Part shown: piece by piece, positions 1,012 to 1,571 of the stretch
Layout of the letters: every line of letters begins with the position of its first letter
Position numbering within the stretch: the stretch's first letter is position 1
DNA from: Scyliorhinus canicula
Lineage: Eukaryota
DNA: 64,000 nucleotides
Assembly: GCF_902713615.1 (NCBI RefSeq)
Contig: NC_052162.1
Location: forward strand, 122,439,727-122,503,726
Direction of reading: 5' to 3'
Translations under genes and position numbers: made by a program
The notes under the pieces: generated by a model
What the model was told of the DNA's origin: nothing
What the model saw: the letters and a program-made list of their open reading frames with translations, nothing else
Databases searched by the model: none

Positions 1012-1055
1012 ATGTGTCAAGCTGAGGGACCAAAGGATGTCAATGTCTTTAAGAG

Positions 1056-1254
1056 ATGATGTGGAGATGCCGGCGTTGGACTGGGGTTAAGAAGTCTTAC
1101 AACACCAGGTTAAAGTCCAACAGGTTTGTTTCAAACACGAGCTTTCGGAGCACGGCTCCTTCTTCAGGTGAATCTGAAGAAGGAGCCGTGCTCCGAAAGC
1201 TCGTGTTTGAAACAAACCTGTTGGACTTTAACCTGGTGTTGTAAGACTTCTTAC
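1056..1254. mobile_element. fold-back Penelope-like (PLE) terminal fragment
   Basis: 80-bp perfect inverted repeat (1088-1167 / 1174-1253); 12-bp TSD tgtctttaagag at 1044-1055 and 1255-1266; paralogous modules show the empty site. Confidence 0.8.
1136..1170 (-). ncRNA. minimal type I hammerhead ribozyme motif
   Basis: minus strand reads CAC-CUGAAGA-A-GGAGC-CGU-GCUCC-GAAA-GCUC-GUG: CUGANGA and GAAA core, helix II, palindromic AGCU helix III, helix I CAC/GUG. Confidence 0.75.
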
Positions 1255-1571
1255 TGTCTTTAAGAGAGAGAGAGAGAGACCTGGGCCAAGCTTTCCAGAG
1301 TCTGCACCCTCCCTGGATTCACTTCCATTCCCTTCAGTTGAGGTCAGAATGAGACAATAAATGGAAAGGGAAGAAAATAAAGTGTTTTACTCACAGAGGT
1401 TGAAAACAGGACGAAGGTTTAGTCTGTGTGAAGCTCAATTATCACTCACACAAAGCCCGCGCTCTGATTGGCTGGAGAACCAGACTACCTCCCGTTCTCA
1501 AACTTTTTTTATTGGTCAACATCTCAGCAGGGAGGTCAGGGGGCGGGCTCTTTCCCGCATGTGCTCATCTG

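Follow-up and report, generated by a model that had tools for sequence, protein, structure and literature searches.

A mirror-image stub of a Penelope-like element in Scyliorhinus canicula, likely primed from both strands of a staggered cut, with a hammerhead predicted to be locked in its own hairpin

The window is the whole 64,000-nucleotide stretch of Scyliorhinus canicula DNA that was analysed, and all positions refer to it. Near its left end, a putative first intron of a C2H2 zinc-finger (ZNF) locus contains a genuine yet ordinary mirror-image stub of a Penelope-like element (PLE), about 200 bases long and one among many in the genome. The 13-bp direct repeat TGTCTTTAAGAGA (1044-1056 and 1255-1267) brackets a 198-bp insert at 1057-1254 (Table 1). 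An earlier, sequence-only reading of the same DNA gave 199 bp and a 12-bp target-site duplication (TSD); both descriptions cover the same 211-bp duplication-plus-insert, because one base fits element and target alike. The 80-bp perfect inverted repeat of that reading is fully reproduced. Its arms are 100% complementary around a 6-nt loop, while shuffles of 700-1700 gave a longest perfect inverted repeat of 6-9 bp in 20/20 trials, and the fold-back has a fold z of -26. The target is present once, without the insert, in 7/7 paralogous ZNF introns among those listed, indicating a true insertion at 1057-1254.

The host context is less firm. The donor near 1394 that had been proposed for a ZNF first intron is conserved: GTGAGT (1394-1389) is kept in 7/9 paralogous stretches whose alignment spans it. 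No splice joint using it occurs among the 15 of 21 joints listed, and the status as a first intron therefore rests on homology. Immediately to the left of the window, an insertion, frameshifts and stops break up the ZNF coding exon. Judged by its sequence, the host locus has the look of a ZNF pseudogene, and the stub is therefore likely without effect there. The window and the 40 kb to its left contain at least 10 C2H2-ZNF genes or pseudogenes that share a paralogous promoter, first exon and intron, several of them broken. The host intron also carries a 180-bp repeat insertion (about 832-1011), which is absent from the paralog reads (joint 831-1012).

RNA data consisted of four raw-read runs from two studies with the same species label, covering other individuals and few tissues. 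Flank reads carry paralog alleles almost throughout the four runs, as at 1030 C>G (42/43 reads in run X20 and 24/26 in run X23, both plus strand), and read depth at 422-643 is near zero. The reads give no support to a regulated ZNF pre-mRNA at the locus; transcription may occur in tissues other than those sampled. A pile-up of read starts at 1086 in 3/4 runs is likely due to clipping at an 8-bp deletion in the insert, and so was not taken as an RNA end. An RNA-seq check for A-to-I editing had also been suggested here; the change types (A>G at about the level of T>C, C>T and G>A) reflect divergent copies and were rejected as a sign of editing.

Table 1. Features of the insert and its surroundings in the window (parent positions count the A of the parent ATG as 0; PMC4209133 was available in excerpt).
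Feature	Position	Strand	Basis or remark
Left target-site duplication, 13 bp	1044..1056	.	Repeat comparison; single copy at 7/7 paralogous empty sites
Arm A, copy of parent 5'UTR/pLTR from -124 to 0, including the tail	1057..1173	-	Parent alignment
Unpaired tail, parent about -30 to 0	1057..1087	-	8 bp absent between 1087 and 1088
Left arm of the perfect 80-bp inverted repeat	1088..1167	.	
Complete minimal type I hammerhead	1136..1170	-	Sequence features; descriptor of PMC4209133; predicted locked in hairpin
Parts of the minus-strand hammerhead	helix I 5' strand 1170-1168, CUGAAGA 1167-1161, helix II 1159-1147, GAAA 1146-1143	-	
C17 of the minus-strand hammerhead	1139	-	Predicted cut 1139/1138
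Head-to-head junction, the 6-nt loop	1168..1173	.	135 genomic copies; mirror form 58
Arm B, inverted copy of parent -118 to about -37	1174..1254	+	Holds right inverted-repeat arm 1174-1253
Incomplete hammerhead: core, helix II and palindromic helix III, without helix I 5' strand	1174..1205	+	
Right target-site duplication	1255..1267	.	
Putative first-intron donor GTGAGT of the host C2H2-ZNF locus	1389..1394	-	Homology only

The parent of the stub was reached through tail-bearing loci. It consists of tandem 2,984-bp units that are 100% identical and contain an open 905-aa ORF. The ORF matches RVT_1 (E 5.8e-10) and, at 21.4 bits, just below the 22.6 cut-off, GIY-YIG (E 3e-4). It contains the motifs DKG, YIDD, CX4CxxC and VY..YIG, with the reverse transcriptase (RT) followed by a C-terminal GIY-YIG endonuclease (EN), the order of an EN+ Penelope-like element. 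Further marks of this class are present as well: the parent has tandem units forming pLTRs, and the insert has an inverted 5'-truncated copy with a 30-40-nt tail at one end and a TSD with an empty site. No solved structure matched the 905-aa protein at E<=0.01. The Penelope origin and the match to element termini anticipated by the sequence-only reading are confirmed by this intact RT plus GIY-YIG parent in the same genome, to which the insert is identical apart from 8 missing bases.

The sequence CQGNLCKTC at residue 753, between RT and EN, fits the CX2-5CxxC linker, which the available part of PMC8557442 describes as absent from Penelope/Poseidon; the linker points to a PLE of Neptune or Nematis type. 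The intact parent units (L100:3985-9950; G000:C2:248.83 Mb) are a candidate linker-bearing PLE for in vitro study. The EN-pLTR end was found at about 100% identity in 40 scored places. In the parent pLTR, the hammerhead occupies -121 to -87 and a TATA lies at -154. The region from about -45 to -24, immediately upstream of the ATG, is similar in sequence to a branch point, a pyrimidine tract and a CAG acceptor; a 5'UTR intron is reportedly known in Drosophila Penelope. A genome-wide Pfam GIY-YIG search gave 19 matches. A further candidate GIY-YIG family is represented by matches in open frames of 1,181 aa close to contig starts (L069 and L071; G000:C590 and C30) and by a tandem cluster on C6:219.4-219.6 Mb (L061-L068).

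The 8 bp of family sequence that the insert lacks are retained in the other 29 of the first 30 related loci. They correspond to about -38 to -31 of the parent, right at the upstream RT start cluster described below, and may have been lost in a slip during priming or in a later deletion. The window contains two further fold-back stubs of the same family, at 60027-60225 and 61971-62125. The inverted arm begins at -124 in both, and the tailed arm is shorter (-104 and -60, respectively).

The family is abundant. Exact matches to one 27-mer from the arm number 46,096 in the 4.2 Gb and 646 contigs searched, against 0 for the reversed control. The family was found in 15/77 arbitrary 10-kb stretches and simple fold-backs in 4/77; a hand-scaled estimate, with a wide error, is ~80,000 loci and ~20,000 fold-backs. 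Arm ends were compared in a sample from contig C1, obtained by taking the first 100 pattern matches and dropping overlapping windows and five segmental duplicates (L235, L254-L257). This C1 sample contains 71 loci, 123 arms, 45 fold-backs (50 before duplicate removal) and 33 single arms. It spans 7.7 Mb of one contig, the exact 27-mer choice favours young copies and fold-backs, and the arm ends are BLAST-defined with an error of a few nt. Five copies of a single fold-back insertion (L253-L257; G000:C1:7.13-7.16 Mb) have been spread by local segmental duplication.

CUGAAGA, a 5-bp helix II and GAAAGCUC are present in both arms. Both strands have the core CUGANGA plus GAAA, an extra base before G10.1, a helix II with G10.1-C11.1, a palindromic helix III and an NUH site. 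The 5' strand of helix I occurs on the minus strand only, where CAC (1170-1168) pairs with GUG (1138-1136) over 3 bp; the plus-strand core is preceded by AAT, which provides no helix I pairing. The minus strand has every feature of the minimal PLE hammerheads described in PMC4209133, as far as excerpted, and the proposal of a minimal type I hammerhead with palindromic helix III, complete on the minus strand alone, thus stands. The Rfam covariance-model scan suggested along with it returned no hammerhead among 17 matches at E<=10. Its best match, a mir-515 microRNA precursor, reached 51.5 bits against a gathering score of 68, mirrors the hairpin alone and was rejected, as were the remaining hairpin matches, likewise below their gathering scores.

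In 93-124 family arms, the common second bases sit mainly at N7, loop II and N17 of the motif (N17 across 124 arms: C 62, A 54, T 6, G 2). These are hammerhead-tolerant positions, and on this comparison the variation has the pattern of a ribozyme selected in the source elements. The cut-site region (-93..-85; predicted cut about -89) holds 1/123 inner arm ends. Nine arms begin at or 3' of -93, so that 114/123 span the cut site. According to this DNA record, the copied RNA templates were mostly uncut at the hammerhead site; templates starting at the cut could account for only 1/123 arms and were rejected as the rule.

The outer arm ends form two clusters, one near 0 (ATG) and one near -35. An ATG-end arm is paired with a -35-end arm in 43/45 fold-backs of the C1 sample (p = 3e-11 versus random pairing); the exceptions are ATG/ATG pairs (2/45), and -35/-35 pairs do not occur (0/45). 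The -35 arm extends at least 5 nt further 5' in 16/43 (at least 20 nt in 9), the ATG arm does so in 16/43, and the two end within 5 nt of each other in 11/43. Junctions vary among copies, most being unique in the C1 sample and some containing filler. The junction of the insert (135 copies) and its mirror form (58 copies) are both found across several subfamilies, which indicates that the junction is remade at each insertion. The TSD measures 11-13 bp in 23/50 pairs, and most others are shorter or chance matches. Inner ends accumulate at -131..-116 (46/123), about 30 nt after the TATA, and 12/123 lie inside the helix II palindrome.

Taken together, we consider the insert, with a probability of about 0.8, to be a fold-back stub of an endonuclease-bearing PLE whose intact parent resides in the genome, likely primed from both strands of a staggered cut, and carrying a hammerhead that is predicted to be hairpin-locked and is likely inert. 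The pLTR promoter would start the RNA near -124, at the 5' edge of the hammerhead, as the TATA spacing and the pile-up of inner ends suggest; an RT stall at the hammerhead edge may look like such a start. The endonuclease would then make a 12-13-nt staggered cut, and one 3' end would prime at an RNA site near the ATG, the other ~35 nt upstream. With these start sites used in the 5'UTR and not in the downstream pLTR, both cDNAs would, 80-125 nt on, reach the RNA 5' end and be joined head to head, anew per insertion. The Poseidon protein cuts and extends both strands, is a predicted dimer, has two RT start sites bounding the tail and uses uncut RNA as its main substrate (PMC11167929). We infer the twin-priming step itself, which is likely, from the pairing of the two start sites and from either arm being the longer one. 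Counted against it are the 2/45 ATG/ATG pairs and the 33 one-arm insertions. A search of the open-access literature found nothing on this PLE family or on twin priming in PLEs, and the term twin priming occurs in none of four PLE papers that it listed.

Such palindromes have been read differently. In the available part of PMC3846280 they are attributed to self-priming, and that of PMC8557442 proposes an EN-mediated resolution as the source of the tail. One cDNA or RNA would fold back and be copied, and the endonuclease would cut the free hairpin back at -35, either ahead of integration or in its course. The arms that turn in the helix II palindrome are explained equally well by this route. A target-primed snap-back copy can neither outrun its template 5' nor gain a tail, so the fold-backs with the longer -35 arm argue against it, the tail-less arm being longer as often as the tailed one. 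Only a free, later-trimmed hairpin escapes this objection, and we regard self-priming as unlikely. Lower still is the chance that a 206-bp fold-back has spread as a non-autonomous, MITE- or retrozyme-like unit from a master copy. It is true that 26 of the first 30 loci are near-identical 206-bp matches with their own TSDs, and one junction is common to 135 copies; these 30 loci were ranked by likeness to the query, however, and the 135 junctions stand against 46,096 arm matches. The junction occurs in several parent subfamilies and in mirror form, most C1-sample junctions are unique, and retrozyme-like tandem monomers are missing, all of which makes a master copy very improbable. Priming from both strands remains our preferred account of the stubs.

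The sequence-only reading went further and had the hammerhead in the host pre-mRNA compete with the hairpin and possibly cut the intron. A complete minimal hammerhead does lie on the host sense strand, and the variation among family arms is that expected of a ribozyme selected in the source elements. In the fold-back, however, the predicted pairing probability of helix I and of helix II is <1e-6, and for helix II this also applies to six growing 5' prefixes; the corresponding predictions for the parent pLTR are 0.25 for helix II and 0.21 for helix I. Forcing the hammerhead core open is predicted to cost 42 kcal/mol relative to the hairpin. Whichever strand is read, the antisense arm is transcribed ahead of the hammerhead arm, so a transcript through the stub is predicted to form the hairpin first. 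Minimal PLE hammerheads need a dimer or the protein of the element even when free (PMC4209133, in excerpt; PMC11167929). Together with the broken ZNF exon and the paralog alleles in the reads, these results leave cutting of the host intron with hardly any credibility, and the proposed competition between ribozyme folding and dsRNA is not upheld. The hammerhead fold is predicted to be inaccessible in the transcript of the insert, the stub hammerhead is likely inert, and a transcript through the stub would be an ADAR substrate and not a ribozyme.

The layout has already been described as an inverted-pLTR-plus-tail insertion, and the single locus matters little. Insertions of the Adineta Pen2a_Av type, as presented in the available parts of PMC3846280 and PMC8557442, share the head-to-head inverted copy, the 30-40-nt tail at one end and the TSD, and their parent, like that in the shark, is tandem with TATA and hammerhead in the pLTR. 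In contrast to that type, the whole insertion here is the last 125 nt of the pLTR and has no ORF, copies number in the tens of thousands, and the end statistics argue against self-priming. Poseidon of Anolis carolinensis (PAc) has in common two RT start sites bounding the tail, a pLTR hammerhead and an uncut RNA template (PMC11167929). In PAc these sites are located 111-118 nt into the ORF, which begins within the hammerhead, whereas here they lie at the ATG and ~35 nt upstream; the linker of the parent, of a kind absent from Penelope/Poseidon in the available part of PMC8557442, also sets it apart from PAc.

Metazoan PLE minimal type I hammerheads share the core, the extra base between 9 and 10.1, G10.1-C11.1, the palindromic 15.2-16.2 and the short helix I (PMC4209133, in excerpt). 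The same excerpts report opposite-strand hammerhead pairs 100-700 bp apart; here, by contrast, the two motifs adjoin each other within a perfect hairpin, and helix I is missing from one of them. Non-LTR retrozymes resemble the insert in being short, non-coding, hammerhead-bearing and PLE-pLTR-derived (10.64898/2026.07.22.740005, in excerpt; see also PMC7229834). We rejected this identity: those are head-to-tail tandems with a hammerhead per unit (10.64898/2026.07.22.740005, same excerpt), and the insert is a single head-to-head stub. Frog Harbinger palindromes and the hyper-edited lizard Penelope are alike in that the repeat folds on itself into long perfect dsRNA (PMC5625713, in excerpt). Unlike in those cases, editing here is only suggested, for a sibling copy, by a read consensus without matched DNA.

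This sibling fold-back (L268; G000:C23:24883.6-24883.9 kb), at 24.88 Mb, has a perfect stem of about 95 bp. It is enclosed by the stop codon of a linker histone ORF of 189 aa (L269:802-1371, minus strand) and the next AATAAA, and the best solved-structure matches of the 189-aa protein are histone H1.0. In 3/4 runs, all from one study, the tail-to-arm read consensus shows three A-to-G changes relative to the family and is otherwise the same over 30 letters (351, 895 and 728 reads; agreement 0.83-0.85). The triple A-to-G variant has 0 matches in the genome, and the matching change occurs in 2/129, 0/131 and 0/131 genomic arms at the three positions, a count biased by exact-match selection. On the other side of the tail, the consensus in two of these runs (agreement 0.45-0.49) equals the sibling flank in 29/30 letters; we take both consensus lines to come from the same reads. 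The other flank match, L267, has no element beside it. Provided that the libraries are antisense-first, which is what the ZNF reads point to, read orientation agrees with the histone mRNA strand. Self-folding repeats and a lizard Penelope are edited by ADAR according to the available part of PMC5625713. The hairpin in the histone H1.0-like 3' UTR is thus probably subject to A-to-I editing, with the consensus drawn from reads without matched DNA and from loose reads enriched for changes. The earlier suggestion of long dsRNA as a likely ADAR target is in this way supported by the sibling copy.

The origin of the inverted ends of PLEs is called undefined in the available part of PMC8557442. The pairing of start sites, with either arm longer, constitutes a genomic test that favours twin priming. 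The hammerhead looks selected and almost all copied RNAs were uncut, and its role is thereby narrowed to some step besides setting the template's 5' end. We find the arguments about evenly balanced for a broader picture, in which the stub records a Penelope-specific twin priming by a protein dimer on uncut RNA, with two fixed start sites and strong-stop-like cDNAs joined head to head. It would have planted perfect 80-100-bp hairpins by the thousand across a vertebrate genome, some of them ADAR-edited in mRNAs, as in the histone H1.0 3' UTR, and such editing could relax the hairpin sufficiently to release the hammerhead. This PLE family supplies perfect dsRNA to host transcripts on a large scale, and the histone H1.0-like mRNA is one case that is likely edited.
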